Positions 12,550 through 36,541 of a stretch of 64,000 bases of DNA are shown piece after piece; positions within the stretch are counted from its first letter, which is position 1; each line of letters begins with the position of its first letter. The notes below the pieces were generated by a model, which saw nothing but the letters and a program-made list of their open reading frames with translations, searched no databases and was not told where the DNA came from. This DNA comes from Escherichia coli (lineage in GTDB: Bacteria > Pseudomonadota > Gammaproteobacteria > Enterobacterales > Enterobacteriaceae), in the NCBI GenBank assembly GCA_009729775.1, contig GCA_009729775.1_4081.1. The stretch is one strand, 5' to 3'. A program made the position numbers and the translations under genes.

Positions 12550-15279
12550 TTATTTCCAACGTGTGCCTGGACCTGATGGTACACCAGTACTGGCAGGTAT
12601 CGCTGAACCACGTTTCGTTGTACTTGGACGATATGTCAAAAAACGAGTTACTTTTTCTGTATCAATTGAATTTATTCCTGAAGTTCCAGTAACTATCTTA
12701 CCAATGTAAGTGCTAGTTAAAGATTCATCAATTGTTTCAGTACTAATAACATATGACGCTTTCTTAGTATTCCTGTTCATTTGTATATACAAATAGAACG
12801 TAGTATTAGCTGGATTACTTTTTACAGTACTTAAATCAACACTTTGTATAGGTAGTCTGTCGAAAATTCCACCTAAAAACACCGGAACTTCACGTGTAAA
12901 GTACACTGAGAATCCTTGTGCAACGTCTTGTGATACTACCACAATCTTTTCTTTAACGCTACCATTTCCGCTAATTAAACCATCCATTTCAGCAGATGTT
13001 GTACCAAAAACGCTGAATACAGATTTGGTTTGATAGTCAGAATCTTGAAAATTGTAATATCCAAAACCAACACCAGGAATAACACCATGTTGATATGCTG
13101 CACCAAGTTGGATGTAACTAGATGATAAAAAACGATTTGATGTTATGACACCATCTACTGTTTTAGCTATCATCATCTTAAATTGTGCATTACCTGGTTG
13201 TGAAAATTGATGTACGGCATCAACACCAATGTAACCAAATCCTGAATATTTTGCAACTGTTAGACCAGTACAACGTTTCATATATGCTTCAGTAATAATT
13301 CCTGTAACAGAACTCAGTGTTTCATATCTAGTACTCACCAATGTAGCTGAAGTTATGTTAGTTCCAGATAATACAACATCAACTTCGGCATAGATTGCAT
13401 AACCTTGGTTATTGTTAAGATTATATGCTGAAACTACTGCGATGGATTTAGAAAAAGTATTATCAGGTACATAATATAATACAATTTGTCCAGATAGTGT
13501 ACCAACAATGCCAGAGTTTCCTATATTAGCAAAAATATCTTGTTTTAATGATTCTAATACCGTTGGTTCTATTGTATATGTTTCATCAAATTCTAAAGTA
13601 TCTGGATTTAATAATCCACCACTTGTTTTATATACACCTTCAATGAATGATGTTCCATAGCATCTAACACTACCATCGGTATCAACAAGAGAAATCATAG
13701 CAGTGTATGTAAAATCATCGCCTATTTGTTTACGATTAGATTGTGGTGCAAAACCATTTAATGTAGTATTATGTTGAACTGAGTTATATTGATATGTTGG
13801 TTGTGAACCTATTTCAGAAAAAACAGTATTATTATAATTATATGTTACATCATCATACGTACCAGAACATGCTAATAATATTTTTCTATTATCGATGAAA
13901 CGTACACCTAAAAGGTTTGCACCAACAGCACTACCAAAAACTGGTAAAACGTTTGCATTTATAACATTACTTGCGGATCTAGTACTGGCAACCCATGAAT
14001 CAAACGGTGTACCACTAACCTTATATCGTTGTAGACCATAAAATTCAGTTGAACTCCATCTAAATTTAGATGCAAATACCAAACCATCTTTAGTTTGACA
14101 TAAACCACCTGCGTTTCCTAATACGCCAGCAGCAGTTGTCCCGGTGAAGTTGACCATATCAATTTCAAAAGGGTTAGAAACTTGAAATCCATTATTATAT
14201 GAAACAGTCGCAGGTGCACGAGCACTACCATCTAGGGACATAGATTTTGAGTTTATATTATAAACAAAACTTATGCCAGTACCATAAACTGTTGAAATAT
14301 ACAAAGGTGTAACCATTCGATGTGTTGGATATAAAGTTACACGTATTTTTGATAAATCAGGACTAACGTTGGCTTGTATATTAAAGTCTGTATAATCTGA
14401 AAATTCTACACGTGATACGGGTGATGTAACTTCGAATAATGAATCCGAGCTAGTACCAACACTATATAATTTATCGAACACTCTTATGTTATTAGATGCA
14501 GAATAACTTGTGTTTCGAACAGTTTGTCCTGATAACCCAGTAACTTTTGTTAATGATGCCATTGAGCTTGCTTTCACATCACTTAGCTCTACTGTGTAAA
14601 TGGAAAGTGCTAATCCCAAATTAGAAACACTCTTATCTTTACACCAAATATAAACCTTTGTCCCAACAATATGTGTATATATTGGCATATCATTACCAAA
14701 AGAAGTACTTGGTACTTTAGCATGAATATGTGATATTTCGTTAAATGTACCATTGGTTATAGTGAAAATATAATTATCTTCAGTACTTAAACACCCAAGC
14801 ATTTCATAACCATTAGAGCCAATAAAGTACTTAATATTTTCAGTACTACTCATAATTGAAGGTTTATACATTGAATTGGTTGAAATAACACTTTCTTGTG
14901 AAATCATAGTTATATTTCTGATTTCTCGTATAAATGAATAATAAAAACCTTTAGTACTACCATTGGTTCCGCTACGCAGAACAACGGCGGTTCCATCATC
15001 TTCAATAATTGTTGGCTGAACTACTTGGTCACTTGACATAGGTGTAGCACCTTCATACGACCCACTTACGTTTAATGGTAAGTAATCCATTTCTCCTATA
15101 CGTGATATAGGCAACATATCTAAAATACTTTGAACTTCAGAACGCTTATATATTGGATATTGAACAATTCCAGTATTGGCATTCGGTGAGGTTCCATTAA
15201 AAGTACGCATAGCGTACCTTTGTCCAATTGCCAAGTTCCCAAGGATCTCGGCACTTCCTATAATTCGTTTTGATGACAT
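12550..15279 (-). CDS. tail-fiber-like protein, paralog B (~909 aa)
   Basis: start moved to ATG 15277-15279 (AAGGA RBS); N-terminal module LPIS.IGEMDYLP..VSG...GTAVVLRSGTNGS and C-terminal module shared with 15895..18591. Confidence 0.65.
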   Translation of the reverse strand: MSSKRIIGSAEILGNLAIGQRYAMRTFNGTSPNANTGIVQYPIYKRSEVQSILDMLPISRIGEMDYLPLNVSGSYEGATPMSSDQVVQPTIIEDDGTAVVLRSGTNGSTKGFYYSFIREIRNITMISQESVISTNSMYKPSIMSSTENIKYFIGSNGYEMLGCLSTEDNYIFTITNGTFNEISHIHAKVPSTSFGNDMPIYTHIVGTKVYIWCKDKSVSNLGLALSIYTVELSDVKASSMASLTKVTGLSGQTVRNTSYSASNNIRVFDKLYSVGTSSDSLFEVTSPVSRVEFSDYTDFNIQANVSPDLSKIRVTLYPTHRMVTPLYISTVYGTGISFVYNINSKSMSLDGSARAPATVSYNNGFQVSNPFEIDMVNFTGTTAAGVLGNAGGLCQTKDGLVFASKFRWSSTEFYGLQRYKVSGTPFDSWVASTRSASNVINANVLPVFGSAVGANLLGVRFIDNRKILLACSGTYDDVTYNYNNTVFSEIGSQPTYQYNSVQHNTTLNGFAPQSNRKQIGDDFTYTAMISLVDTDGSVRCYGTSFIEGVYKTSGGLLNPDTLEFDETYTIEPTVLESLKQDIFANIGNSGIVGTLSGQIVLYYVPDNTFSKSIAVVSAYNLNNNQGYAIYAEVDVVLSGTNITSATLVSTRYETLSSVTGIITEAYMKRCTGLTVAKYSGFGYIGVDAVHQFSQPGNAQFKMMIAKTVDGVITSNRFLSSSYIQLGAAYQHGVIPGVGFGYYNFQDSDYQTKSVFSVFGTTSAEMDGLISGNGSVKEKIVVVSQDVAQGFSVYFTREVPVFLGGIFDRLPIQSVDLSTVKSNPANTTFYLYIQMNRNTKKASYVISTETIDESLTSTYIGKIVTGTSGINSIDTEKVTRFLTYRPSTTKRGSAIPASTGVPSGPGTRWK

Positions 15280-15894: not shown

Positions 15895-18591
15895 TTACCA
15901 GTTTATGGTTCCTGTTTGTGATGGTAGACCGTAGCTAACTGGGAACGATGAACCTGCTGATTCAAGTGAAGCACCAAATATATCTAAACGGGAACGTTTT
16001 TGTATATTAATTGTTTCGATTTGAATTGCATTAGTTTGAATAGTACCTATCCAAAAAATATTATATGCAGTTGTTCCTGTTTCAGAAATAACATCAGTAG
16101 TTATGTAATAGTTTGCCAATCCTTGTTCCAATTTAACATATACATAGAATGTTGTATTTGCTGGATTAGACTTAATAGTTCTCAAATCAATATTTGAAAC
16201 TGGTAGTGAAAATGACTTACCTGAAAGAATAACAGGTGTTTCCTCAGTAAAATAAACAATAAATCCTTGTGCAACGTCCTGTGACACTAAGTTAATTGGG
16301 CTACCTTGAGCAGTCCAGTTATTATAGTCTGTAATCGTTGTCCCATATTTTTTGAATGTCATTTTATTTGAGTAATCCATTGGCTCCAAAATTCCAAAAC
16401 CAATACCAGGTAATGCTGCGGGTTGACTTCCTTGTTCATAACTGGCATGAGATCCAGTAATAATAAAACTTGTAAATTGTGCAGTTGATTTAGTTACATA
16501 TGCTCTAAATTGATGAGTTGCAGTATTACCTATTGTTGGATGTGTTAATGGGTCAGAACCACCAATGAAGTAGAATGAACCACCATCATATATTGTCAAA
16601 CCAACAGAAGAAGATGCAATCGAACCATTCCCATTTGGTGTAAAGTTATCACCATATGTATTTTCAAGTACTAAACGCTTGAATGTAATAGATGTAATAT
16701 TACCAACTCTAGTATTAACATTAACTTCAGCAATTCTAATATAGTTTCTATAATCATTAGTAACTGTACTCAACATAACGAAAGCAGGAATGTCTGTTTG
16801 TTGCGGAACAAATAGTGTCATATCACGGTATGCTTGTGCTGATAAATTCCAATCACTTAGAACTTTCGCATATTCAGCATTTCTAAAATTATCAAGTACT
16901 GATTGTGTTACACTTATAATACCTGTACCATTTAAGTTTTTATCATAGGATAAAGATTGTGAATAACGTTGTCCAACCATAAAAATACCACCATTGGTTG
17001 TGACAGTTGACCCAGAAATACTACTAATAAAAATTCTATTATTTGCATTATCATCAACATTAGCACGTTCAACTGTAGGTTCATAACCTTGTATTGTTCC
17101 TAAAGATAATGATTTAAATGTAAAATTAGGAGTACTTTTATGAACTGCATATGATGGTCTAAATCCACCACTACCCGAAGCACGTGAATATTGTTTAGTA
17201 CTGTTATCTGGTAGTAATTCCACACCATTAATAAATGAGCCTACGGCTGAACCAAATGATGGACGAACTATTCCACCTTTGAAATCAGTTGATAGTACTG
17301 CACGGACATTCAGCATACTATAAACTATTTGAATAGGAAACTTAGCTTTTTGCATAAGTAATGGTTCTGCTAAGTTTGGACATGCAGTACAAAATGCTTC
17401 ACCAGAATTTAAATAAAAATAAGAACTGTAAATATTCCTTGCATTTGCATGGTTATACAATGGATCGTTATTTAAAACGTTACCAGTAGGAACTAATGCT
17501 GAACCAGTATCCGTTATAACTAATGGTGCTTGGTATGAACCAATATCATTACCCGCATCTAATGTACATTGTTTAGTACTCATATTGAATACAAAACTGT
17601 AACTATGTTGTGGTCGTGTATTATAAGTTGCCATTGTAAACCAAGCATCACCATTCATTCTAAAGCGGAAATTCTGTGTACCTGGCTGCTGTGCAACATA
17701 TAAATCGATTGATGTCATGTAAATCCCAATACCACGTAGATTTTTTGGAACATACACATAAGGTTTATCAGCGATATTCGTTGATGTTACCTGATTAGTT
17801 ATAACCATATTATTTTGTGCAGAATAAGTTGTATTATAAAATGTTTTAGTAGTCCATCCAGTAATACGAGTTGCTGTATAAGTGCCATTACTGATATTAT
17901 AAACAACTTTAACTACAACTAATTGTAATTGGTTATTTGCATTAAGTACGTTGAAAACATATATAGAACCATCTTCTGCCATCATAGCATATTCAATACC
18001 ACCTTCAGGTGATATATCTGCTTGGTTAACGAAAAAACCAGTATGCAATTTATCATCTAATGTACCATTGGTAATTGATATAAACAAACCATTAGTACTG
18101 TTAGAAGTGTCAATATATCTACCGAGTAAAATATTTGGATCAGTATTGTATAAACCAATCGCAACTCGATTTGAACCAAAAAATCCAGGCTTGTATTGAC
18201 GACTTGTGTTAATTGTACGGCTCATGTCATCAACTGATAATGCGTTAGCTAAATATGAATAAAATAATCCCTCAACACTACCGTTTGTCCCACTACGTAA
18301 AAGCACTAGTGTACCATCGTTTTCTAATAAAATTTTATTTCTACGTTGTGTCTGGTTTTCTGATGCACCATTGAAATCTCCAGAAACACCCGCAGGTAGA
18401 TAGTTTTGTGAACCATAATGGGAGATTGGCATCATACTTACTATATCTAGTACTTCATCTCTTGAATAAGTATCTAGCTCCATATTGCCATTAGCATCAA
18501 ATACTTGATCATTGATACCTTGTATTGTTCTTTTACCATTAACTGTCACATTATGTGTGACATCCAAGCCACCATATATTTTCTTTGACAT
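15895..18591 (-). CDS. tail-fiber-like protein, paralog A (898 aa)
   Basis: long Gly/Ser/Thr/Asn-rich ORF; shared N- and C-terminal modules with 12550..15279; T4-type late promoter upstream. Confidence 0.65.
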   Translation of the reverse strand: MSKKIYGGLDVTHNVTVNGKRTIQGINDQVFDANGNMELDTYSRDEVLDIVSMMPISHYGSQNYLPAGVSGDFNGASENQTQRRNKILLENDGTLVLLRSGTNGSVEGLFYSYLANALSVDDMSRTINTSRQYKPGFFGSNRVAIGLYNTDPNILLGRYIDTSNSTNGLFISITNGTLDDKLHTGFFVNQADISPEGGIEYAMMAEDGSIYVFNVLNANNQLQLVVVKVVYNISNGTYTATRITGWTTKTFYNTTYSAQNNMVITNQVTSTNIADKPYVYVPKNLRGIGIYMTSIDLYVAQQPGTQNFRFRMNGDAWFTMATYNTRPQHSYSFVFNMSTKQCTLDAGNDIGSYQAPLVITDTGSALVPTGNVLNNDPLYNHANARNIYSSYFYLNSGEAFCTACPNLAEPLLMQKAKFPIQIVYSMLNVRAVLSTDFKGGIVRPSFGSAVGSFINGVELLPDNSTKQYSRASGSGGFRPSYAVHKSTPNFTFKSLSLGTIQGYEPTVERANVDDNANNRIFISSISGSTVTTNGGIFMVGQRYSQSLSYDKNLNGTGIISVTQSVLDNFRNAEYAKVLSDWNLSAQAYRDMTLFVPQQTDIPAFVMLSTVTNDYRNYIRIAEVNVNTRVGNITSITFKRLVLENTYGDNFTPNGNGSIASSSVGLTIYDGGSFYFIGGSDPLTHPTIGNTATHQFRAYVTKSTAQFTSFIITGSHASYEQGSQPAALPGIGFGILEPMDYSNKMTFKKYGTTITDYNNWTAQGSPINLVSQDVAQGFIVYFTEETPVILSGKSFSLPVSNIDLRTIKSNPANTTFYVYVKLEQGLANYYITTDVISETGTTAYNIFWIGTIQTNAIQIETINIQKRSRLDIFGASLESAGSSFPVSYGLPSQTGTINW

Positions 18592-18667: not shown

Positions 18668-19138
18668 TTAAAAATCTTTATTTTTATATAGTATTCTTTG
18701 ATTATTTGAACCACGGAAAGGTAATTTTAAATTCTTTTCGGACTCGATAAACTTACCATCAACTAATACATCTAAGTACTGAAGTATATCTTTAGCATGA
18801 TTTTTCATAATCTCATCTAAAGTATACCCACTCCAGCACCAAATAGTTTTACTAGGATAAGTTTCTTTAACTACTTTGCATAGATTTAAAACTTCATCTA
18901 TATTCTTTTTCATTAATGGATCGCCGCCTAGAAGTGACAAACCACTAACATATGGTTTTTTTAGTTCCTGTAGTATAATCTCAACTGTTTCAGTACTGAA
19001 CAATTGACCACTTCTGTAATCCCATGCTTCTTCATTGAAGCAACCATCACATCCGTGCGAACACCCACTAACAAATAAAGAGCAGCGAACGCCCTCTCCA
19101 TTTACTAAATCATCCTTGATTATCGTCTGGTAATTCAT
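18668..19138 (-). CDS. nrdG: anaerobic ribonucleotide reductase activating protein (radical SAM)
   Basis: 156 aa; motif VSGCSHGCDGCFN; adjacent to nrdD. Confidence 0.85.
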   Translation of the reverse strand: MNYQTIIKDDLVNGEGVRCSLFVSGCSHGCDGCFNEEAWDYRSGQLFSTETVEIILQELKKPYVSGLSLLGGDPLMKKNIDEVLNLCKVVKETYPSKTIWCWSGYTLDEIMKNHAKDILQYLDVLVDGKFIESEKNLKLPFRGSNNQRILYKNKDF

Positions 19139-19450: not shown

Positions 19451-21256
19451 TTATTTGTGCTGAATACGCTCACAACACTCTTGTTGTTTGCCTTTATTGA
19501 ATCCACGCGAAGAAGGATTACCCAAGTAACCAGAAACACGACGAATCACTGAGATTGTCTTCTCATTACGATTATCACATACCGGACAGTGGAAACCATG
19601 TTTATCTACACTGAACTCACCCTGGAAGCCACATTCATAACAATGGTCAACTGGTTGGTTAATACCAAAATATGGTATCTTCGTGTAAGCATAGTTAACT
19701 AATGTTTCAAGTGCTTGAATGTTGTTTGCTAAGTTTGGAGATTCAACATAACTGATGTTTCCACCGTTACTTAGGTAAGCAAAGCCTTCTTCATAACTCC
19801 ATTTATCAAATGGAGAACTTTCTACCCATACTGGTTGATGGAAGGAATTTGTGATGTAATCACGTTTTAGTACTGAAGGATATTTTGCTTCAATACAACG
19901 TGCAAATTTATAACAAAGTGACTCTGCTGGCGTTCCATATAGACTAAAAGCTATATTACTCTCTTTTTTGAACTCATCGCATTTTACTTTCATATAATTC
20001 AGTACTGACATACAAAACTCCTTACTGATAGAACCAGTGAGGATTTCTGAACATTCAACAAGTCCAACATAACCAATACTAATACTAGCATAACCATTGT
20101 AAAATAGCTTGTCAATGGTTTCTTCTGCACCTAAACGTGCTAATGCACCTTCCATGAACAAAATTGGATTTTGCTTTGCTTTAGTGCCTTTTAAACGCTC
20201 TACGCGGTTCATCTGAGCACGATATGCAATATTCATATGCTCGTCTATCTTATCAAAAAACTCTCCGTCAGAAGTACTCTCAAGAGCAATTAGAGGTAAA
20301 TTGATAGAAACCACACCTAAATTGAAACGACCGTTGTATTGTTCATTTCCATTTGAATCTTCCCATTTTCCTAAGAATGAACGACAGCCCATCGGTGTTA
20401 CAGCAGTACTACTACTTCCAGTCACTTTGTGATTTAATGGTACTGAAACAAAGTCAGGGTAGATTCGTTTTGATGCACAACGCATAGCTAACTGTTTAAG
20501 GTCATAATTACTATCGTTGGTATTCATGTTTATACCATCTTGTAAAAAGAAAATTACTTTAGGAAACACTGGAGTAATCTTATCTTTACCTAAACCATTC
20601 TCATGGACTTTTAAGTACTGTTCAGTGATTAATTTGCCAAATTTAGAAGTGTTAAGACCTAAACTAAGAGAAATAAATGCAGCTTGACCATTAGTACTAA
20701 TCATTGAATTAGTTTGGTAAAGTAATGTTTGGCAGCCATCATACACTTCTTTACGTAGTTCTTCTTCAATGAATTCATCACTTAGATTATATTTCTTTTG
20801 TTTTTCTAACAGCTTATCCCATGACTTTTGAACGTAAGGTTCTAATCCGACATCAATGTGAGCCAAAGATTGACCACCATACTGGGAACTGGCAACAGCT
20901 TGGACAATTTGTGTCAGTACTGTGCAAGCTACACTGAAACTTTTTGGTTCTTCAATTTTAGCACAACCAATAGTGAAGCCGTTTTTAAGCATATCAGGAT
21001 AGTTAACCAAGCAACAATTGGTCAATGGGCTAATATAGTAATCTAAATCATGAATATGACCATATCCATCATTATGCCATTGCATTAACTCGGTGGGAAT
21101 AACATCTTGTGAATAATGCTTAGATAGAATACCTGCTAGTAAATCTCTATGTGTATTGACGCATTTTGCATCTTTATTAGCGTTTTCATTAGTAAGATCA
21201 GTATTACTCTGATTTAGGAAATTTGTTACATCGGTATATAATTTATCTAATTGCAT
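19451..21256 (-). CDS. nrdD: anaerobic ribonucleoside-triphosphate reductase, class III
   Basis: strong resemblance to T4 NrdD as I recall it (LTNENANKD, NCCL, C-terminal glycyl-radical region RRVSGYLG and CPVC Zn site); start moved to ATG 21254-21256 with AAGGA RBS (ORF track start 21319). Confidence 0.9.
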   Translation of the reverse strand: MQLDKLYTDVTNFLNQSNTDLTNENANKDAKCVNTHRDLLAGILSKHYSQDVIPTELMQWHNDGYGHIHDLDYYISPLTNCCLVNYPDMLKNGFTIGCAKIEEPKSFSVACTVLTQIVQAVASSQYGGQSLAHIDVGLEPYVQKSWDKLLEKQKKYNLSDEFIEEELRKEVYDGCQTLLYQTNSMISTNGQAAFISLSLGLNTSKFGKLITEQYLKVHENGLGKDKITPVFPKVIFFLQDGINMNTNDSNYDLKQLAMRCASKRIYPDFVSVPLNHKVTGSSSTAVTPMGCRSFLGKWEDSNGNEQYNGRFNLGVVSINLPLIALESTSDGEFFDKIDEHMNIAYRAQMNRVERLKGTKAKQNPILFMEGALARLGAEETIDKLFYNGYASISIGYVGLVECSEILTGSISKEFCMSVLNYMKVKCDEFKKESNIAFSLYGTPAESLCYKFARCIEAKYPSVLKRDYITNSFHQPVWVESSPFDKWSYEEGFAYLSNGGNISYVESPNLANNIQALETLVNYAYTKIPYFGINQPVDHCYECGFQGEFSVDKHGFHCPVCDNRNEKTISVIRRVSGYLGNPSSRGFNKGKQQECCERIQHK

Positions 21257-21393
21257 TGTACATTCCTTGTATTTTGAAATCATCTGGGGGTGAAGATATT
21301 TAATATCACCAGACAACATTATAGCGTCAGAACAGGTTATTTCTCTTGACCTATATCAAGGAAAAGTCACATTGGTTTTTATTTGCACAAATA

Positions 21394-22702: not shown

Positions 22703-22927
22703 CTACTTATTATTTGGGTTTGGTATACAGTACACATATACTAGATTACTAAAGTGTTCAGTACTGGAATATTTTGCTAACTCAGTAATGTGAAAGTTCT
22801 TGTCATAAAACCTTCCACTATTGAATGTTGTTATTTGGCAACAATGTATAGGTCTGAAAATATAATAATAAAATATATCATTTTCAACTACAACAGTATG
22901 GTTTGTATAACGCTCGATTTTCTTCAT
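22703..22927 (-). CDS. hypothetical protein (74 aa)
   Basis: ORF track. Confidence 0.45.
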   Translation of the reverse strand: MKKIERYTNHTVVVENDIFYYYIFRPIHCCQITTFNSGRFYDKNFHITELAKYSSTEHFSNLVYVYCIPNPNNK

Positions 22928-23292
22928 GTGTGGATAATTTCCTTAACCCCGTATTCCATAATTGCTAATGTGCAAATTTCACATGGTTTAGCAGGTACAG
23001 GAATACCATCTTTACTTATCCGTGCAATCAGTAAAGTATGAACATCAGCACGTGCAGCTAATAAGCAAGAAATTTCAGCATGGAGAAATTCACCTTGTGG
23101 ACGTCCAGCACGAATTGCAAAACCTTTCTGTACTGGATGTGTCTGTGTATAAGAATTTGTGCGTGTTGCCAGTACTCGACCTTTTTTATCCAGTGCACGA
23201 GCAATCACACGATACCGCTTGTAGTTCCCTACTTGCTCAATAGGTGGCATCCGGCGTAATTCTTCAACAAGTTTCTCCAATTTACTATTCAT
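22924..23292 (-). CDS. small CDA-fold zinc deaminase (TadA/cytidine-deaminase-like), 122 aa
   Basis: HAEISCLLAA ... PCEICTLAI = H(A/C)E...PCxxC zinc-binding signature; Arg-rich; gene GC ~42% vs ~33% background (hand count). Confidence 0.65.
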   Translation of the reverse strand: MNSKLEKLVEELRRMPPIEQVGNYKRYRVIARALDKKGRVLATRTNSYTQTHPVQKGFAIRAGRPQGEFLHAEISCLLAARADVHTLLIARISKDGIPVPAKPCEICTLAIMEYGVKEIIHT

Positions 23293-23915
23293 AAGTCTAA
23301 GTCTATACCCTTTTCAAGTGATTTTTCTAGAACCCAAAGTTTACATTCTTCACTCTCCAAATGTATCTTTGCCTCTTGCTGTTCTTCTATTGTACAAGAC
23401 TTTATGAATGCACGCAAGGCTTGGATTGTATTTTTTAAATTTTTTATGTCATCGATAATTTTTTCTTTGGTTTCTTCATCGATTACACATGAACTCCAAC
23501 TGTGTCGTTCCTCCCAAACTGTTTTAGTGGGATTATAAATTGATGATGTCGAAATAGCTACATGGATCTTATTAAATTCATCGTCCGCTTCTTGTTGGGT
23601 GTAATCACCATATGTTCTTAGCACATTTTTGTATAATTCATCAATGGCCTCTTCATACGTATCACCACCACAATCCAATTGATAATCATGTGCTTGTACC
23701 CATTCGTCGTCTTGCTCAATATACATTGGTGAAAGAAATTCTACCCAAAATTGAGTCTTTGTATTCAATGCTTTGAAATCTTCAATTCGATTTGTCATTG
23801 GACACACATCATGAGGTTCTATATCAATCCTAGCTGGAACCATATCTTTGTTTATGAATTTAGGATGACCCAAAATCCACCAGTACTTTTCCGATGTAGT
23901 CATAGTAATCTCCAA
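23289..23915 (-). CDS. hypothetical protein (208 aa)
   Basis: ORF track. Confidence 0.6.
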   Translation of the reverse strand: MEITMTTSEKYWWILGHPKFINKDMVPARIDIEPHDVCPMTNRIEDFKALNTKTQFWVEFLSPMYIEQDDEWVQAHDYQLDCGGDTYEEAIDELYKNVLRTYGDYTQQEADDEFNKIHVAISTSSIYNPTKTVWEERHSWSSCVIDEETKEKIIDDIKNLKNTIQALRAFIKSCTIEEQQEAKIHLESEECKLWVLEKSLEKGIDLDL

Positions 23916-24721: not shown

Positions 24722-25098
24722 TTAGTAAAACACGAATTATTACTGATAAGTTCATCAAGTACGTTTTGTACTTCGATAGAATTAATATCAACTTTGTAAT
24801 AATTATAGTTTTTAACTCTAAAATGTTCTTTTGATATATCAACTTTAAATTCAATAATATCAAGATTACCAATAAAATCAGACTTATCAGTTCTTAAATC
24901 CAAAATACCTAATTCCGGTTTTTGTGGTTTACATAAAATCAAACCAAATTTATTTTCTTCAAATGCCTGATTAAACATATCATAATAATCACTAATAACA
25001 AATCTAATATTATCAGTGCTTAACTTTCCTGATTTTCCTTTTTTATAAACAGAAACAATGTTTAGTTCAAAGGTTTTACCAAAGCGTGTGATTTTCAT
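24718..25098 (-). CDS. hypothetical protein (126 aa)
   Basis: ORF track. Confidence 0.55.
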   Translation of the reverse strand: MKITRFGKTFELNIVSVYKKGKSGKLSTDNIRFVISDYYDMFNQAFEENKFGLILCKPQKPELGILDLRTDKSDFIGNLDIIEFKVDISKEHFRVKNYNYYKVDINSIEVQNVLDELISNNSCFTK

Positions 25099-26066
25099 TT
25101 TGGGCTATAACCACTTTTAATTTTAGAAATTACTTTCTTCTCGAAGAACTTACGTGCTTCTTCAATAGTTTCGAATTCTTCACCATCTGTAGTACTAGTT
25201 TTACCAATAGAACCGTACTCAATAATTACTTCACACACTGGAGCATTCAATTCAATATTATAGAATTTGTTTGAAGAATCGTGAACATATTCCAAATGTA
25301 CATTATCAGGAATGTTCTGTACATAATCATAGTTCTTGAAGATAATATCAATCATATTTTCTTCGCCGCGATCAGGAAATATTTCAGTATTATTGAGTAC
25401 TAAACGCTGTGCAGCACGGAACATATCAAAATATTGTTCGCCTTTTTTCAGTTCTTTTGTATCAGAACAGAAATGACCATAATATTCTACATAATCATTC
25501 CAAGGATAAATTCCTTCATCAGCAGTTTCAGACACGTAAGTTTCATCTTGTGGAACTTTAAAACCACGAGTTTTTGGATGAGAAATTAAGCACAGTGAAA
25601 TATTATGACCGATATCTGAATCATCAGTAATACTACCACCAACCATATGAACAACATTTTTAATACTTTCAAAATCTACATCTTCAATTTCATGATACAT
25701 TAAATGTTCTTCAATATTACTTACTAGTAATGAATTACCATTTCCGGCATCGAATTCAAAAATGAAAAGTTCTACACAATCTTCTTCTTTCATTTCAATA
25801 GTATCACTGAGTTTAATATACTCATTTTTTAATTGTTCAATATTTTCATGAGAACCAAAACTATAACGTGAACTGATATAACTACTACCGTCCAACCATC
25901 CCATATCCCAAGGTTCTTCTGACATGTATTCTGAGCTATAGAAATCAGTCAAATCATCTCTCTGAGTACAAACCGTAAGAGAACGAACATTACTAAGACC
26001 TTGAACTTCAAGATTCAGCACTGTAGTATTGCCAATTTTTTGTTCAGAAATAATTTTAGTTTTCAT
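25095..26066 (-). CDS. protein with C-terminal WGR-like domain (323 aa)
   Basis: C-terminus NKFYNIELNAPVCEVIIEYGSIGKTSTTDGEEFETIEEARKFFEKKVISKIKSGY resembles the WGR motif pattern; N-terminal 260 aa unassigned. Confidence 0.55.
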   Translation of the reverse strand: MKTKIISEQKIGNTTVLNLEVQGLSNVRSLTVCTQRDDLTDFYSSEYMSEEPWDMGWLDGSSYISSRYSFGSHENIEQLKNEYIKLSDTIEMKEEDCVELFIFEFDAGNGNSLLVSNIEEHLMYHEIEDVDFESIKNVVHMVGGSITDDSDIGHNISLCLISHPKTRGFKVPQDETYVSETADEGIYPWNDYVEYYGHFCSDTKELKKGEQYFDMFRAAQRLVLNNTEIFPDRGEENMIDIIFKNYDYVQNIPDNVHLEYVHDSSNKFYNIELNAPVCEVIIEYGSIGKTSTTDGEEFETIEEARKFFEKKVISKIKSGYSPK

Positions 26067-28294: not shown

Positions 28295-28326
28295 ATTATA
28301 TCATGTATGGGACATAATGTCCCATA
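28295..28326 (-). promoter_or_regulatory. extended -10 promoter (TGaTATAAT) overlapped upstream by a 21-bp palindrome TATGGGACA-N3-TGTCCCATA (candidate operator)
   Basis: plus attatatca 28295-28303; palindrome 28306-28326; RBS and ATG of 28075..28263 follow. Confidence 0.5.
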
Positions 28327-28331
28327 CAATA

Positions 28332-29771
28332 TTACATATTTTCTTCAGCAAATTCAGCCAGTGGTGAACGAACAACACCTTCTAGTTCGATGACACGACA
28401 ACCTGCCCAGTCTTTAAACTTCTCAGTTACATATGTCAAACCACTGTTAACAGGACTAATAAACTTACTGTCAATCTGACTCAAGTTACCCATAATTACT
28501 ACTTTACAGTTTAACCCTGCTCGTGTCAAGATGGTTTTTGCTTGTGCAGGTGTAATGTTTTGGAATTCATCAACTACTAGAATAGTGTTGGTGAATGAAC
28601 GTCCACGTACAAAGTTTAGTGCTTTAAATTGAATAACATTACGTTTCATAATCTCTTCAATACTACCTTGTGGATTGGCATCATCTTTATGAAGAAACTC
28701 TAACGCATCAATCGCGGCTCCACAGAATGGAATCACTTTTTCTGCTTCTGAACCTGGCAAGAAACCAATATCTTCAAACTGTGAGTCTTGAGTTTTAGAG
28801 AAGATGATTCGGTCGTATTTACGTTTTTCCAGTACTAATTCTAATGCAGTAGCAATTGTAATTAGTGTTTTACCAGTACCAGCAGAACCTAGCAGTACTG
28901 TTAGATGTACATCAGGATCGAGAATACTGTTGATGGCGAGTGCTTGTTGGATATTCTTTGCTTTAATATCCCATACTTTAGCACGTAAAGCCACTGATTG
29001 TCCAATGTCTTGGAATACCAAAATATCTTCTGGTGTTAGTGTTCCATCATCTTCCTCAATTGCTGATTGTCCTTCGTACACAAATAATACGTCAGCATCA
29101 TCATATAGATAATCACCGATGCATAGATTTTGTGGAAGCAGATGTTCAATCAAGCTTTTAGAAATGTAATGATACAAACGACGACCAACTTGTTCGGATT
29201 GAATATTAGTATTGGTTAAGTTGCTGTATACTTCCCAAAAATTGATTTCCAGATGGTGTTGACCAATGTGAATCAAATCACTATCACCAATAACAATATC
29301 ATGGCGATAATCTTGTACCTCGACACCATAACTTAGTGCTTTGATACGCATGTTGATATCACGAGTTACCAGTACTGATTCTGTTGCTAAAGCTACCAGA
29401 ATGATTTTATCATCAGGTACAGTACTTTTGAGAAGGGTTTGAACTTTCTCTTCTGTACCTTTAGTACGAATTAGTGCCTCAGCTTCTTCGTTTGTAATAA
29501 CAAACAATTTGCTATCAGGATTCATATTGGTATGAACATCAGCAATATTAACACCAGTACTACTAATCTCGTCATGTGATGCATCTGCAATAATTGCTTC
29601 AATGTTACGAATAGCAACACGAGCATCGCGTGAAACATCTACATTACGACTCTTAATCGAATCTAATTCTTCCAGTACTGTAAATGGTAGAATGATTGCA
29701 GCACCATCAAAAGCAATAGATGCATTAGGGTCAGATAGTAGTACGTTTGTGTCAATTGTATATTTTTTCAT
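28332..29771 (-). CDS. phoH: PhoH2-type protein: N-terminal PIN domain fused to PhoH-like ATPase (479 aa)
   Basis: PIN signature (YTIDTNVLL, ILPFTVLEELD); Walker A VLLGSAGTGKT and PhoH-like C-terminal half. Confidence 0.85.
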   Translation of the reverse strand: MKKYTIDTNVLLSDPNASIAFDGAAIILPFTVLEELDSIKSRNVDVSRDARVAIRNIEAIIADASHDEISSTGVNIADVHTNMNPDSKLFVITNEEAEALIRTKGTEEKVQTLLKSTVPDDKIILVALATESVLVTRDINMRIKALSYGVEVQDYRHDIVIGDSDLIHIGQHHLEINFWEVYSNLTNTNIQSEQVGRRLYHYISKSLIEHLLPQNLCIGDYLYDDADVLFVYEGQSAIEEDDGTLTPEDILVFQDIGQSVALRAKVWDIKAKNIQQALAINSILDPDVHLTVLLGSAGTGKTLITIATALELVLEKRKYDRIIFSKTQDSQFEDIGFLPGSEAEKVIPFCGAAIDALEFLHKDDANPQGSIEEIMKRNVIQFKALNFVRGRSFTNTILVVDEFQNITPAQAKTILTRAGLNCKVVIMGNLSQIDSKFISPVNSGLTYVTEKFKDWAGCRVIELEGVVRSPLAEFAEENM

Positions 29772-29831
29772 AAAACATCCTTGAGTTATGAGTACATCCT
29801 TGTACTCGACTAATGTTATTGACTCGGATTA

Positions 29832-30134
29832 TTACATATTTGGTTCGTATTCAACATAGCAACGTGAACCTCGAACCTTTTCTTCCCAGCACTCCTGGTA
29901 AACAAGTTGACCAATTGAAACTGGTTCTCTTGATAGTCCATTACGTACTTCACCACTTTGGGTTTTATACATGAATGAACATTTGGACTCGCTACATTGT
30001 CCTAAACTAACAACTTCTGCGGTATTGTAGTGAATGTTGGTACGCTTAGTGTTCTCGTGATACTGTCCGAACCAAAGAACTCCTGCACCTAACAGAACAG
30101 TACAAATAAGACTTTTGATGTGTGTTTGAATCAT
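29832..30134 (-). CDS. small secreted or membrane-anchored Cys-containing protein (100 aa)
   Basis: N-terminal hydrophobic segment LICTVLLGAGVLWF; five Cys. Confidence 0.5.
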   Translation of the reverse strand: MIQTHIKSLICTVLLGAGVLWFGQYHENTKRTNIHYNTAEVVSLGQCSESKCSFMYKTQSGEVRNGLSREPVSIGQLVYQECWEEKVRGSRCYVEYEPNM

Positions 30135-30451
30135 AATGCGTTAAATCCATTGTTTAAGTATGTTTCAATATTAATTTTACCAACAGGATTACTACTGTGA
30201 ACAAAGTACTCAAACGGTTCTTTAATATTATTATCAAACATATAATCAATAAGAAACTTAGCAAAAGAATATCCAGTCTTTTCGTCTTCGCTCACATCAC
30301 CCAAGTCATGGTCGAATGATACAAATGCTGGAATTCCATTTTCAATAACATATTCACATGCACTTTTAAAGTCACGACATACCACCATATCTTGGTTTGG
30401 ATAATATAGATTTGCATCACGAATATCATCCAAAAACATTGCGTAAGACAT
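30131..30451 (-). CDS. hypothetical protein (106 aa)
   Basis: ORF track; ATGA overlap. Confidence 0.55.
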   Translation of the reverse strand: MSYAMFLDDIRDANLYYPNQDMVVCRDFKSACEYVIENGIPAFVSFDHDLGDVSEDEKTGYSFAKFLIDYMFDNNIKEPFEYFVHSSNPVGKINIETYLNNGFNAL

Positions 30452-30460
30452 GTTAAACTC

Positions 30461-31012
30461 CTATAGATAACTAATTAGTAAGTTTTCTTTTTGAATCAGA
30501 TACTCCAATTCTTGTTTTGCTGTACCGATGAAGTTCTGTGTCATAAGATTATTATATCCCGCTTCTCGATTTTGTCCCTTAGAATAACGAGAAATATGAC
30601 ATAAATTTACACCAGCAACTTCAGCACTCGCATGTTTAGCATTAGTGTATCCATCTCTAATGTGTTTCAACTCGTCATAGCTTACTTCATAGCTAAAACT
30701 ATGACTGTTTGCACCTGGGTAAATTTCAAAAGTTTTGAGTGGTCGAAGATGGGAAACAAAAATATTGTAATCCATTTCTTCTTGAACTTCACGACGCAAC
30801 GCATCTTCTAGTGAGATATCAGTACTTTCAACTGTTCCACCACATCCTCCTAGAAGTCCATCCCAACGTAATTGTAGTAATACCAGATTTACTTCTGGTA
30901 TATCATTTAACTCATAGTTTTTGTAAGGGTTGCATTTTCTTGCAAAGAAATAGCAAAATACAAAATTTGCACGTGAGCCATATTCACCAAAGGGAACTTC
31001 TTTAACACTCAT
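30461..31012 (-). CDS. Nudix-family hydrolase (183 aa)
   Basis: Nudix-box-like GGCGGTVESTDISLEDALRREVQEEMD (REVQEE core; spacing slightly atypical); start overlaps Sir2-like stop (ATGA). Confidence 0.6.
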   Translation of the reverse strand: MSVKEVPFGEYGSRANFVFCYFFARKCNPYKNYELNDIPEVNLVLLQLRWDGLLGGCGGTVESTDISLEDALRREVQEEMDYNIFVSHLRPLKTFEIYPGANSHSFSYEVSYDELKHIRDGYTNAKHASAEVAGVNLCHISRYSKGQNREAGYNNLMTQNFIGTAKQELEYLIQKENLLISYL

Positions 31013-31767
31013 TTCATACGTTCCTTAATTATAGTCTCTAGATGTGGTATTGCTTTGGTTGCTGGCTTGATAACTTTTTCATTAAACAAAAAATCATTAT
31101 CATTTTTACGAATGTTAACATTAACACTATAACATGGTAATGCTGCTGCTAATCTCGACCATACCAGTACTGTATCGCTACTACCAATTACAATAACTGT
31201 ATCATTTTCATTAAGAGATTTCAACACATTATTTCGTTCTTCGTAAATTGGTAAGCGTATACCATCAACATAACGATGATATTCTCCAATCATTACTACA
31301 TTTGGTTTAGCAAAAACATCATGTTTTGGTATGTATGGTTCGTATCCGCAGTTAATAACATTATAATCATCAGAATTGATACTATAATTTTCAATAACTT
31401 CACACAAGTTTCCATGAAGTTTAAGCTCATGACCACCAATACGAGTATAAAGATCGTCCATGTTAGAAGTCATATGAAGGAAGCAATCACCATATTGATC
31501 TTCTAACGATTTTATAAAATAATGCATTGCATTTGGTTCGCATTGTCCCAATTTTACACGTAATGTATTATAGAAAGAATGAACAACATGATATTTTGTA
31601 GTTAAACTAGCAATGTTACATACATCATTAATTTTAAATGTATCCCACAAACCATCATCAAATCGAAAAGGTTCCATCCCACTTTCAACGGAAAGTCCTG
31701 CACCTGATATAATCAGTAATCGTTTTTTACCTTCATTGCTTATAAATTTTTCTGATATCATATTCAA
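31009..31767 (-). CDS. Sir2-family (sirtuin-like, NAD-binding) protein lacking the Zn-ribbon (252 aa)
   Basis: ISGAGLSVESGMEPFR (GAGIS..SGIP.FR), TSNMDDLY (TQNID.LH-like), LHGN, VIVIGSS; no Cys4 module. Confidence 0.8.
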   Translation of the reverse strand: MNMISEKFISNEGKKRLLIISGAGLSVESGMEPFRFDDGLWDTFKINDVCNIASLTTKYHVVHSFYNTLRVKLGQCEPNAMHYFIKSLEDQYGDCFLHMTSNMDDLYTRIGGHELKLHGNLCEVIENYSINSDDYNVINCGYEPYIPKHDVFAKPNVVMIGEYHRYVDGIRLPIYEERNNVLKSLNENDTVIVIGSSDTVLVWSRLAAALPCYSVNVNIRKNDNDFLFNEKVIKPATKAIPHLETIIKERMK

Positions 31768-31770
31768 TCC

Positions 31771-31965
31771 TTATAAAAAACCAATTAAATATATTGATAA
31801 TAACAGAATGATTCCAATATGATAGGCATACATAAAATTATTATCTTTGTGATAACCATTGGATTTCAAGTCCCTGTATAAGCATTTAGCATTGTTATAA
31901 ATTACAACAATAAAAAAAACTATAAAAAAACTCAAAACCCATTCATAAATTGTGTATGCCATCAT
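31771..31965 (-). CDS. small membrane protein (64 aa, 2 TM)
   Basis: two hydrophobic helices; between HslV-like and Sir2-like genes. Confidence 0.45.
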   Translation of the reverse strand: MMAYTIYEWVLSFFIVFFIVVIYNNAKCLYRDLKSNGYHKDNNFMYAYHIGIILLLSIYLIGFL

Positions 31966-31989
31966 CTATTCTCTTATAATTATATAATT

Positions 31990-32586
31990 TTAATACTTTA
32001 AAACATCAAACTCGGCACTTACACTAGTTACATTATCACTGACAATTTTAAAAATTGATTTGATGCGTTCATGTAGTGGCACTTTTGATTCATTTTCAAC
32101 TTCAATATATGCTTGCATTGCTGCAATAGCATGATATGTTCCGCTACCTACGGCGGTGATTCGTGTTTTCGGTTGAAGAACTGAAAAATCTTCTTGAACT
32201 TCATAAATTGTATGATTGTGAAGAATGATGAACTGTCCACCACCTACTTCTTGTGAAGGATCACGAGAACCCCATTCCTCTTTGAACATTTGACGAATAA
32301 TAGGAATAACTTTCAGTACTAAGTACTGTGGAAACGTCTCATTTGCATCTTGCTGTGGTAGATTCAAACTGTAAGTAAGAAGTTGACCCATACGGAATGA
32401 TGTGGTGTAACCAATCGCCATAATTTCTTTTGTACGGGTCAAACCAGCATCATCATTGATTTTAATGAATTCTTTCTCAAATACTTTAGGCTCAGTTTGA
32501 ACGGACTTTGTGAACCCGTTACTTCCCAGTTTGTCCCCTGCAATAAAAGAAGTTACACCATCAGTGTGTGCAATGATACATGTCAT
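31990..32586 (-). CDS. HslV/proteasome-beta-like Ntn-hydrolase peptidase (~198 aa)
   Basis: start set to ATG 32584-32586 giving N-terminus M-TCIIAHTDGVTSFIAGD (cf. HslV TTIVSVRRNGHVVIAGDG, Thr1 nucleophile after Met removal) and RITAVGSGTYHAIAAMQA (cf. HslV LIAIGSGGPYAQAAARA); comparison with HslV from memory. Confidence 0.6.
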   Translation of the reverse strand: MTCIIAHTDGVTSFIAGDKLGSNGFTKSVQTEPKVFEKEFIKINDDAGLTRTKEIMAIGYTTSFRMGQLLTYSLNLPQQDANETFPQYLVLKVIPIIRQMFKEEWGSRDPSQEVGGGQFIILHNHTIYEVQEDFSVLQPKTRITAVGSGTYHAIAAMQAYIEVENESKVPLHERIKSIFKIVSDNVTSVSAEFDVLKY

Positions 32587-32843
32587 AAAATAGCTCCAAT
32601 TGCAAATAAAGTTGTATATAAAATATAAATCAATGTACCTAATAACATTAGACACACCAAATATGATGTTGCCAGAACATAATAAATTATTGCTTCAAAC
32701 TTTGAATTGAACTTCATTGTTGTGTTATCAATAAAGCCATTTTTGTAATCTTTGTAAATGAAAACTGTTAGGAAAAGTACAGTAATATACATCACTACTG
32801 TAGCATAAAAAATAATAGATGTCAAATTTTGGATGTTTGTCAT
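32583..32843 (-). CDS. small membrane protein (86 aa, ~3 TM)
   Basis: hydrophobic helices; stop overlaps the HslV-like start (ATGA). Confidence 0.5.
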   Translation of the reverse strand: MTNIQNLTSIIFYATVVMYITVLFLTVFIYKDYKNGFIDNTTMKFNSKFEAIIYYVLATSYLVCLMLLGTLIYILYTTLFAIGAIL

Positions 32844-32913
32844 AGTTATATAATCTCAATATAATTAATAACAAAGGAAGTACATCATAATCATCCTGTT
32901 ATTTTAATTATTT

Positions 32914-33522: not shown

Positions 33523-33555
33523 AACAAATCCTTAATTTTGGTTAGGAAGATATAA

Positions 33556-33585
33556 ATAATATAGTACTTAAACACTTAAGTCAAA
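33556..33585 (-). promoter_or_regulatory. sigma70-like promoter TTGACT-17-TATTAT for the 33.5-28.0 kb operon
   Basis: minus-strand TTGACT (plus 33579-33584) and TATTAT (plus 33556-33561); AAGGA RBS before ATG 33520-33522. Confidence 0.4.
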
Positions 33586-33703
33586 CTTTTTCTGTACTTA
33601 ACTCAAATTTCCCTCATCTGATAATCCCCTTAGTACAATCACTGTGAAGATTCTATCACAAACCCATACCAAATGTAAAGCTTTTTTATAAGGAGTGCCC
33701 TTA

Positions 33704-34209: not shown

Positions 34210-34210
34210 C

Positions 34211-36082: not shown

Positions 36083-36093
36083 TATTTGTAATA

Positions 36094-36540: not shown

Positions 36541-36541
36541 A

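Follow-up and report, generated by a model that had tools for sequence, protein, structure and literature searches.

The 64,000-nucleotide stretch of DNA analysed here (the window) belongs to an Asteriusvirus jumbo phage and is 98-99% identical to phages 121Q, G17 and Sharanji. It carries a small open reading frame, hereafter the mini-deaminase gene (Table 1), which is a real, conserved gene of this jumbo E. coli phage and whose copy in 121Q already bears the annotation "dCMP deaminase". As the initial annotation had stated, the product is a 122-aa protein with a zinc-deaminase signature, with HAE at residues 71-73 and PCEIC at residues 103-107. The gene overlaps both of its neighbours: the stop codon of the upstream gene, which encodes an acidic protein, overlaps its start codon (ATGA), and its own stop codon overlaps the start of a short downstream ORF. 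The acidic protein was found directly upstream of the mini-deaminase in every Rak2-like clade examined and has no sequence match in Pfam or PDB, while the downstream ORF has no family match and no homologue at the orthologous loci of the other Rak2-like clades examined. No tRNA genes were found in the 64-kb window.

Table 1. Features of the mini-deaminase locus and its comparator, in window coordinates.
Feature	Coordinates	Strand	Remarks
Mini-deaminase gene, 122 aa, CDA-fold zinc deaminase	22924..23292	(-)	121Q gene 490, Sharanji gp468, RaK2 ORF518; homologue of phiKZ PHIKZ260
H71-A72-E73 codons (CAT GCT GAA)	23074..23082	(-)	Zinc ligand and catalytic glutamate, helix 2; invariant in alignments A1 and A2
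P103-C104-E-I-C107 codons	22972..22986	(-)	Two Cys zinc ligands, helix 3 start; P103, C104 and C107 invariant in A1 and A2
Codons of residues 46-62, family-specific segment N46-S-Y-x-x-T-H52-P53-x-Q55...A59	23106..23156	(-)	Forms an additional helix (53-61), after strand 2 and before the HAE helix
Acidic protein, 208 aa (TTG start) or 204 aa (ATG at 23903)	23289..23915	(-)	Upstream of the mini-deaminase; PHROG 16370; pI 4.6
74-aa ORF	22703..22927	(-)	Downstream; start overlaps the mini-deaminase stop (ATGA)
NrdD, anaerobic ribonucleotide reductase	19451..21319	(-)	About 1.6 kb downstream of the mini-deaminase, same transcription direction; from annotation
NrdG, activase of the anaerobic reductase	18668..19138	(-)	From annotation
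Canonical T4 Cd/ComEB-type dCMP deaminase, 163 aa, pI 6.4	34489..34980	(-)	Paralogue at superfamily level only; comparator

The mini-deaminase has both hallmarks of the superfamily, an [HC]-x-E motif in helix 2 and P-C-x-x-C where helix 3 begins. It scored 29.4 bits against Pfam PF00383, above the gathering cut-off of 25, and this model was matched by 37 of 37 family members. Across these 37 diverse members (alignment A2), no change is seen in the zinc ligands H71, C104 and C107 or in N46, P53, A72, E73 and P103, and H52 and A59 are at least 90% conserved; the same level holds for Q55 in alignments A1 and A3. R91 does not vary either, and the long loop between strand 3 and PCxxC is surrounded by conserved basic residues (A1 and A2). 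The only cysteines of the mini-deaminase are C76, C104 and C107. The invariant His, Glu and two Cys, together with N46, suggest that the protein is catalytically active. Its structural model contains three core helices, one inserted helix (residues 53-61) and four strands, whereas the three-layer alpha/beta/alpha fold of the CDA superfamily has a five-stranded sheet. Helix 4 and strand 5 are lacking, and the chain ends at strand 4, 15 residues past PCxxC. No delivery or targeting domain is present: the protein is a stand-alone 122-aa polypeptide whose neighbours have no known family.

The curated NCBIfam models for ComEB, tetrameric cytidine deaminase, TadA and RibD all remained far below their cut-offs. 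The ComEB model (TIGR02571) did not match the mini-deaminase at E<=10 and matched 12 of the 37 relatives weakly (best 1.1e-6), none of which reached the cut-off. The TadA model (NF008113) likewise did not match it, and its weak matches to 8 of the 37 relatives (best 1.9e-5) were all far below the cut-off, while the tetrameric cytidine deaminase model (TIGR01354) gave 13.8 bits against a cut-off of 113.65. None of the toxin- or APOBEC-type Pfam families (MafB19, DddA, SsdA, APOBEC-like) was reached; MafB19-deam scored 14.6 bits against a cut-off of 27, and this model is unspecific, as it also matches the canonical Cd at 1e-15.

At E<=1e-10, the mini-deaminase falls into a virus-associated family of 1,095 clusters (50% identity) that includes PHIKZ260 of phage phiKZ. 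Members were found on viral genomes and phage-like contigs; a scan of 185,579 species genomes, limited to one peptide pattern from alignment A1, gave only two loci, both on short MAG contigs. The proteins are 96-166 aa long and strongly basic, with a median pI of 9.65 and 97% above 8.5 among 270 sampled members. Helix 4 is absent from the family. About half of the members, including the mini-deaminase, stop at strand 4, and the rest add a C-terminal beta-hairpin, as in the longer relative P0262, where a beta4-turn-beta5 hairpin follows strand 4 instead of helix 4 and a parallel strand 5. The family signature is N-x-Y-x-K-[TS]-H-P-x-Q...A...G-x-P before HAE and [IV]-A-R-x4-G-x4-A-K-P-C-x-[IV]-C around the zinc cysteines. 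The mini-deaminase has the length, both signatures, the end at strand 4, the pI above 8.5 and the viral setting of this family. PHIKZ260 is 32% identical to it, with the same motifs and size but HSE in place of HAE, and RaK2 ORF518 is 75% identical; the similarity of ORF518 to phiKZ ORF260 had been noted by RaK2's annotators. Current automatic annotation names the members inconsistently, as 'dCMP deaminase', 'TadA' or 'hypothetical'. Literature searches yielded no biochemical data for any member, and none of the papers found that mention PHIKZ260 gives its function. Membership in the 'B3gp45' clade of phage deaminases (Iyer et al. 2011) was considered and discarded, B3gp45 being a giant APOBEC-like toxin of a Wolbachia prophage. 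The PHIKZ260-like clade delineated here appears to be a large, unnamed, virus-only or virus-associated family of stripped-down, very basic predicted deaminases.

The initial annotation had taken the atypical composition of the gene as a possible sign of recent acquisition. The composition itself was confirmed: GC content is 40.9% against a background of 33.3% (about 42% and 33% by the earlier hand count), the highest of 98 window ORFs, and the protein is Arg-rich (9% Arg). The gene also has the third lowest synonymous-codon likelihood of 96 ORFs (z = -1.5), and the rare codon CGG occurs three times in the window ORFs, each time in this gene. These values would fit a foreign origin, but the codon-usage z lies within the variance of the window ORFs, and so does GC3, which is average (z = -0.15). 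The GC excess sits in codon positions 1 and 2 and follows from an Ala/Arg/Gly/Pro-rich amino-acid composition. It recurs over the local background in most orthologues and homologues checked, including RaK2 (37.1 vs 30.6%), fHe-Yen9-04 (35.2 vs 29.7%), 7t3 (40.3 vs 34.7%) and phiKZ (40.3 vs 34.4%). Acquisition is further contradicted by synteny, as five Rak2-like clades (Asteriusvirus, RaK2, 7t3, XbC2 and fHe-Yen9-04) keep orthologues of 53-75% identity at the same syntenic position. Between the window and Sharanji, the gene shows 17 synonymous and no non-synonymous codon differences; it is under purifying selection. The mini-deaminase gene belongs to the core genes that Rak2-like jumbo phages have inherited vertically, and its recent horizontal acquisition is hardly credible.

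Among characterized enzymes, the canonical dCMP deaminases (T4 Cd 1VQ2, S. mutans 2HVV, cyanophage S-TIM5 4P9C, human DCTD; ComEB TIGR02571) are the most similar. Both they and the mini-deaminase have a zinc site built from HAE and PCxxC, an Asn that follows strand 2 and the conserved dC-contacting Ala, Glu and Pro, and the genomic setting is nucleotide metabolism. In T4 Cd the contacts to the dC moiety are made by V24, N40, A105, E106 and P131 (PMC12697855). Four of these positions correspond to N46, A72, E73 and P103, which do not vary across the 37 family members; the same residues fail to distinguish dCMP deaminases from other helix-4 families. When profile A1 was compared with PDB sequences, the best matches were the dCMP deaminases of S-TIM5 (2e-6), S. 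mutans (4e-6) and T4 (1e-5), against about 3e-3 for TadA-like chains, and structure-based identity was also highest to dCMP deaminases (29-33%). The mini-deaminase differs from these enzymes in being about 40 residues shorter, without helix 4 and parallel strand 5, and it lacks the T4-type second zinc site. Its connection between strand 3 and PCxxC takes about 11 residues instead of 3-4, it has the extra helix with the HP-x-Q motif, and its pI is 9.7 compared with 6.4 for the window's Cd. In canonical enzymes, the C-terminal region missing here is expected to contribute to the allosteric dCTP/dTTP site and to the hexamer. The mini-deaminase is indeed a second deaminase besides the phage's own Cd, as first proposed, and BLASTP detected no similarity between the two.

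Other deaminases resemble it less. The anti-phage dCTP deaminase (NCBIfam NF041025) shares the HAE-to-PCxxC core, but only the C-terminal core of this 437-residue model is matched (profile positions 336-384, 11.6 bits against a cut-off of 400), and the mini-deaminase gene belongs to a phage and not to a host defence. In tetrameric cytidine deaminase and blasticidin-S deaminase (TIGR01354; 3DMO, 3OJ6), the first zinc ligand is Cys, not His. Tetrameric cytidine deaminase has C-A-E and PCGxCRQ where the mini-deaminase has HAE and PCEICTL, and its C-terminal beta4-beta5 hairpin has a counterpart in P0262 but not in the mini-deaminase, from which strand 5 is missing altogether. The C-terminal helices of TadA and ADAT2 are also missing. 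The 5mC-selective deaminases related to mSCD-B5 are likewise phage-encoded and annotated as dCMP deaminases; they show that proteins of this kind may depend on a triphosphate substrate and are able to act on ssDNA (bioRxiv 10.1101/2024.12.05.627091). However, mSCD-B5, of 154 aa, adopts the prototypical fold of mononucleotide deaminases, with PBCV-1 7FH4 as its closest structure, and is encoded next to a cytosine-methylating thymidylate-synthase homologue (same preprint). None of this canonical fold, length and linkage holds for the mini-deaminase, and an mSCD-B5-type identity was rejected.

Nearest homologues and gene neighbourhood both point to a substrate among the deoxycytidine nucleotides. 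PHROG 174, 'dCMP deaminase', was matched at 6.6e-13, and among the NCBIfam models, that of the anti-phage dCTP deaminase was hit by the most members, through its deaminase domain (25 of 37, best 7.7e-9); ten of the 37 members also matched the PADLOC 'dCTPase' model. In each of the five Rak2-like clades examined, nrdD/nrdG follow downstream of the mini-deaminase gene, and in XbC2 and fHe-Yen9-04 a thymidylate kinase gene (tmk) stands between them. On unrelated metagenomic phage contigs, a family gene was found at 1.5 kb from nrdD/nrdG (L017, arranged as in the Rak2-like phages), flanked by DnaB and DNA polymerase A (L018), and 4 kb from a dUTPase_2 gene (L020). Phage phiKZ, whose sole CDA-fold deaminase is PHIKZ260, encodes thymidylate synthase, tmk and DHFR. 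Nucleotide-metabolism neighbours of the family gene were absent from phiKZ, L004/L008, L010 and L019.

Taken together, our best guess, a tentative one, is that the mini-deaminase is an unregulated dCMP, dCDP or dCTP deaminase that makes the corresponding dU nucleotide. It would be a zinc-dependent hydrolytic cytosine deaminase with the CDA fold cut to its minimum. A free deoxycytidine nucleotide would be converted to the deoxyuridine nucleotide, which may then feed thymidylate synthesis for a phage genome of 33% GC in a host of 51% GC. The enzyme would be free of the allosteric dCTP/dTTP control that the canonical hexameric Cd of the same phage has. [quoted passage not shown] Some observations run against a dC-nucleotide substrate: the part of canonical dCMP deaminases that holds helix 4 and strand 5 is missing, no curated family model was reached, and the family is uniformly very basic, which is more typical of nucleic-acid binders. 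In addition, this phage already has a canonical Cd and phiKZ has a Dcd-type dCTP deaminase (PHIKZ214), so that a plain dCMP or dCTP activity would duplicate an existing one in one of the two lineages.

The basicity of the family, together with the invariant R91 and the basic residues around the loop before PCxxC, would suit a polynucleotide deaminase acting on RNA or ssDNA, such as host transcripts, tRNAs or, during takeover, the host's DNA. The editing or anti-defence role first proposed for the protein would then be essentially right. Several further points favour such an enzyme. The C-terminal beta-hairpin of the longer members has a topology common to cytidine deaminase and many toxin deaminases (Iyer et al. 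2011 classification), the presence of another dC-nucleotide deaminase in both Rak2-like phages and phiKZ speaks for a role that is not redundant, a study of early infection mapped a separate primary transcription start site for PHIKZ260 (PMC8244752), and phage 'dCMP deaminase' homologues deaminate ssDNA in vitro (bioRxiv 10.1101/2024.12.05.627091). The three CGG codons might throttle its expression, which is speculation. On the other hand, the closest sequence homologues are mononucleotide deaminases, none of the toxin- or APOBEC-type cut-offs was reached, and the protein has neither a targeting domain nor a general immunity-like partner. The acidic upstream protein was rejected for that role as it is kept only within Rak2-like phages; in other contexts of the family, the upstream genes are unrelated to it and not consistently acidic. 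A free DNA deaminase would also endanger the phage's own genome, around which there is no phage nucleus according to the Sharanji paper, and the conserved site beside nrdD/nrdG and tmk fits nucleotide metabolism. We regard a polynucleotide substrate as unlikely, though worth serious consideration. The earlier suggestion of a role beyond redundant nucleotide metabolism keeps some force, given the pI, the coexistence with another dC-nucleotide deaminase and the curated models that were not reached. Of the two observations that the initial annotation had named as refuting its reading, only one was made: GC3 lies within the variance of the window ORFs, whereas the protein is not clearly orthologous to any dCMP or riboflavin-pathway deaminase.

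Its tRNA version fared worse. A TadA-like adenosine-34 deaminase for phage or host tRNAs is suggested by the basic protein, by the automated JGI name 'tRNA(Arg) A34 adenosine deaminase TadA' of several family members and by the tRNA-Ser with anticodon ACU, i.e. with A34, of the close relative Sharanji. However, the mini-deaminase ends at strand 4, and the TadA helices after this strand form part of the anticodon-loop binding surface. The TadA model did not match it and stayed far below cut-off for the few relatives matched. The tRNA-Arg of Sharanji has the anticodon UCU, inosine 34 in tRNA-Ser(ACU) would misread AGA, a common Arg codon (152 uses in the window ORFs), and A34 is absent from all seven tRNAs of phiKZ, although this phage has a family member. 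The host's tRNA-Arg(ACG) may still offer an A34 substrate. The E. coli host, moreover, has its own essential TadA. A TadA-like function is very improbable. Another small molecule is a somewhat better candidate, albeit a doubtful one: C or dC nucleosides (salvage), CTP or CMP, a modified cytosine nucleotide or a pyrimidine signalling nucleotide. Tetrameric cytidine deaminase was the second most often matched NCBIfam model (16 of 37), the long loop before PCxxC and the C-terminal hairpin are cytidine deaminase features, coexistence with Cd or Dcd suggests a different substrate, and some phage homologues prefer 5-methyl-dCTP (bioRxiv 10.1101/2024.12.05.627091). Against this stand the HAE motif instead of CAE, the absence of PCGxCRQ, the low score on the cytidine deaminase model and the absence of a cytosine-modifying thymidylate-synthase homologue next to the gene; binding of an uncharged nucleoside, besides, needs no very basic surface.

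If the mini-deaminase is an unregulated dC-nucleotide deaminase, it would be an ordinary part of dNTP-pool biasing in AT-rich jumbo phages, and only its minimal architecture would be notable. It is among the smallest apparently functional CDA-fold enzymes, in a family that goes down to 96 aa and in which many members have four strands instead of five. The PHIKZ260-like clade comprises over a thousand 50%-identity clusters under inconsistent automatic names. It is conceivable, if rather unlikely, that these proteins are natural polynucleotide or signalling-nucleotide deaminases of large phages, used for host takeover or counter-defence. This would explain their coexistence with ordinary dC-nucleotide deaminases, their uniform basicity and the presence of the otherwise absent CGG codon. 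The family, at about 100-125 aa and a pI of about 9.6, would then contain the smallest known nucleic-acid deaminases, and these would be attractive scaffolds for compact base editors.

The initial annotation described an ORF with the H-A-E and P-C-x-x-C zinc-deaminase signature, and this ORF is indeed present, encoding a 122-aa PHIKZ260-like protein, hereafter the mini-deaminase. It was also rightly separated from the canonical T4 Cd/ComEB-type dCMP deaminase of the window (Cd); BLASTP similarity between the two is absent (E=12). The mini-deaminase scores 29.4 bits against PF00383, above the Pfam gathering threshold of 25, and matches PHROG 174 'dCMP deaminase' at 6.6e-13, but it falls far short of the cut-off of every NCBIfam model. 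Its below-threshold Pfam match to MafB19-deam was counted as unspecific because the same model also matches Cd.

Table. Deaminase genes, motif codons and neighbouring genes in the window
Feature	Position	Strand	Remark
Mini-deaminase ORF, 122 aa, ATG start	22924..23292	-	Read from sequence
H71-A72-E73 codons of mini-deaminase	23074..23082	-	
P103-C-E-I-C107 codons of mini-deaminase	22972..22986	-	
Acidic ~208-aa protein, pI 4.6, PHROG 16370	23289..23915	-	ATGA overlap with mini-deaminase start
323-aa phage protein, C-terminal WGR domain (PF05406, 1.2e-10)	25095..26066	-	Sharanji label 'WGR domain protein'
Canonical Cd/ComEB-type deaminase, 163 aa	34489..34980	-	PF00383 5e-22, PHROG 174 1.5e-62

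When 1.84 billion cluster representatives were searched with a profile, 4,533 matches reached E<=1e-3 and 1,095 reached E<=1e-10; the best 150 matches listed each consist of a single domain and measure 96-166 aa. In 37 diverse members N46, P53, H71, A72, E73, R91, P103, C104 and C107 are invariant, and the common signature is N-x-Y-x-K-[TS]-H-P-x-Q...A...G-x-P...LHAE...[IV]AR-x4-G-x4-AKPCxIC...YT; in PHIKZ260 of phiKZ, HSE replaces HAE. The pI has a median of 9.65 among 270 members and exceeds 8.5 in 97% of them, against 6.4 for Cd. The C-terminus lies 15-17 residues past PCxxC, at strand 4, in 54% of them, while about one third have a hairpin tail of 25-29 residues. Database members are overwhelmingly of metagenomic or phage origin. 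By tblastn, the family occurs in 196 phage records, including Rak2-like jumbo phages, phiKZ-like phages, large Synechococcus phages, Salicola SCTP-2 and Aeromonas phages of 115-139 kb. In 185,579 species genomes, a scan limited to one peptide pattern yielded just two loci, both on short MAG contigs.

Compared with PDB sequences, the family profile matched dCMP deaminases best (S-TIM5, 2e-6; S. mutans, 4e-6; T4, 1e-5), with TadA-like chains at about 3e-3. None of the 37 members reached an NCBIfam cut-off. Most frequent, in 25 of 37 members (best 7.7e-9), were matches to the anti-phage dCTP deaminase model, and further matches below cut-off were to tetrameric cytidine deaminase (16), ComEB (12), TadA (8) and RibD (6); PADLOC 'dCTPase' was matched by 10 of the 37. 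Since PF00383 is passed and the NCBIfam cut-offs are missed, the mini-deaminase is a CDA-fold superfamily member outside every curated functional family. In sequence, its nearest relatives are dC-nucleotide deaminases.

An AlphaFold model built from 30 homologues (pLDDT 91.2) predicts helix 1 (3-14), strands 1 (28-34) and 2 (40-45) and an extra helix (53-61), followed by the HAE helix (72-80), strand 3 (86-92), a loop of about 11 residues and the PCxxC helix (105-114). Strand 4 (118-121) is the last modelled element, and neither helix 4 nor strand 5 is present. In the longer relative P0262 (127 aa, pLDDT 95.2), strand 5 comes right after a two-residue turn and forms a C-terminal hairpin, whereas dCMP deaminase, TadA, guanine deaminase and RibD have the helix-4 arrangement. 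The modelled topology of the mini-deaminase is either similar to that of cytidine deaminase or simply truncated.

The region shares 98-99% identity with three jumbo coliphages of Asteriusvirus, namely 121Q, G17 and Sharanji, and the gene already has an annotation: it is gene 490 of 121Q, labelled 'dCMP deaminase' (the canonical enzyme being gene 469), and gp468 of Sharanji, labelled hypothetical. The presence of two CMP/dCMP deaminases in this phage group was remarked in the CBB genome paper (PMC5259590), and the annotators of RaK2 recorded the likeness of ORF518 to phiKZ ORF260. The deaminase entry of the Sharanji paper (PMC11895373), compared with GenBank OR545507, lies about 23 protein accessions further on, at the place expected for the canonical dCMP deaminase; its label is also borne by T4-type cd genes in several GenBank records. 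The mini-deaminase stands for a large clade of minimal, basic CDA-fold deaminases that is associated with viruses and lacks helix 4; no description of this clade was found in the searchable literature.

The atypical GC content noted initially was borne out, the gene having the highest value (40.9%, z=+2.2) of 98 non-overlapping window ORFs. The protein is Arg-rich as stated (9.0%, rank 2), and its Lys content is average. The GC surplus sits in the first two codon positions (ranks 2 and 3). Codon usage lies within the spread of the window ORFs: GC3 is 23.6%, their mean being 24.5% (z=-0.15), and the leave-one-out synonymous-codon likelihood is low (z=-1.5, third lowest of 96). The orthologues of RaK2, fHe-Yen9-04 and 7t3 and the phiKZ homologue are likewise 5-6 GC points above their surroundings, XbC2 being the exception; the surplus therefore belongs to the Ala/Arg/Gly/Pro-rich composition of the family. 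Orthologues with 53-75% identity occupy the identical slot in RaK2, 7t3, XbC2 and fHe-Yen9-04, and the 18 nucleotide differences from Sharanji, in 17 codons, are all synonymous. For these reasons the suggested recent acquisition is not supported. Only 3 of 665 Arg codons in 96 minus-strand window ORFs are CGG, all in this gene (codons 14, 26 and 91, the last encoding invariant R91). Sharanji has the same three and RaK2 has CGG at two other positions; there are none in the 7t3, XbC2 and fHe-Yen9-04 orthologues. Elsewhere in the window, three minus-strand ORFs of about 900 aa each (5753..8542, 12550..15279 and 15895..18591), which may be paralogues, differ from their neighbours in having unusually high GC at the second codon position (0.41-0.43) and low GC3 (0.17-0.23).

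The acidic PHROG 16370 gene is the upstream neighbour in all five Rak2-like clades; in RaK2, 7t3, XbC2 and fHe-Yen9-04 the mini-deaminase gene directly follows and overlaps this gene of about 210 aa. Its N-terminal ~110 residues are best conserved, and Pfam and PDB sequence searches gave no match. The anaerobic ribonucleotide reductase genes nrdD and nrdG lie 1-3 kb downstream of the mini-deaminase gene in Rak2-like phages, with a thymidylate kinase gene (tmk) in between in XbC2 and fHe-Yen9-04. Among unrelated metagenomic phage contigs, the family gene is near nrdD/nrdG in L017, flanked by DnaB and DNA polymerase A in L018 and 4 kb from a dUTPase_2 gene in L020. In L004/L008, L010 and L019 its neighbours are helicases, 2OG-Fe(II) oxygenases or amidoligase clusters, and nucleotide enzymes are absent from the vicinity. 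In the whole phiKZ genome PHIKZ260 is the sole CDA-fold deaminase, being the single match of a family HMM that also picks up Cd of the window; a motif scan agrees. An early-infection study (PMC8244752) assigns PHIKZ260 a primary transcription start site of its own. The phiKZ annotation includes a Dcd-type dCTP deaminase (PHIKZ214, with fragment PHIKZ217), thymidylate synthase (PHIKZ235), tmk and DHFR. Window positions ~28300..50200, matched to 121Q genes 438-480, carry, by the 121Q annotation, Sir2-like, PhoH-like, three Clp-type protease and DNA ligase genes, as well as an RNA ligase and a gene whose product name is cut to 'polynucleotide 5'; the latter is probably a polynucleotide kinase forming a T4-style RNA-repair pair with the RNA ligase.

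The zinc-deaminase active site is intact, conserved and under purifying selection. T4 Cd contacts dC through N40, A105, E106 and P131 (PMC12697855). Because their equivalents are invariant in the family, we infer that the mini-deaminase is active and directed at the cytosine ring. Free deoxycytidine nucleotides are tentatively the most likely substrate class, although a polynucleotide target, if rather less probable, is kept as a substantial alternative. A polyanionic substrate would match the uniformly high pI of the family and its invariant Arg after strand 3. Moreover, alongside the family member, Rak2-like phages carry a canonical dCMP deaminase and phiKZ a Dcd-type dCTP deaminase, so that plain dCMP or plain dCTP activity would be redundant in one lineage or the other. 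Another small molecule is a distinctly unlikely substrate. A specific TadA role is very improbable, as the C-terminal helices are absent, the Sharanji tRNA-Arg has anticodon UCU and phiKZ has no A34 tRNA. The closely related Sharanji (L022) does encode, outside the window, a tRNA-Ser with the unusual A34 anticodon ACU (loop CUACUAA) and a long variable arm (17472-17562), and a long-variable-arm tRNA with anticodon CAU, annotated as Met (17377-17463); with scores of about 50 bits, both exceed the threshold of the Rfam tRNA model.

Acting on free deoxycytidine nucleotides, the mini-deaminase would provide the thymidylate synthesis of a 33% GC phage with dU nucleotides. It would be expected to lack allosteric control, because it has no counterpart of the C-terminal part with which canonical dCMP deaminases support their regulation and hexamer assembly. 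Recent studies found phage members of this superfamily that are specific for dCTP or dCDP (PMC12697855) or for 5-methyl-dCTP, as well as activity on ssDNA (bioRxiv 10.1101/2024.12.05.627091), so that homology does not predict the phosphorylation state of the substrate. The PHIKZ260-like clade comprises over a thousand sequence clusters and has a member in the model phage phiKZ.
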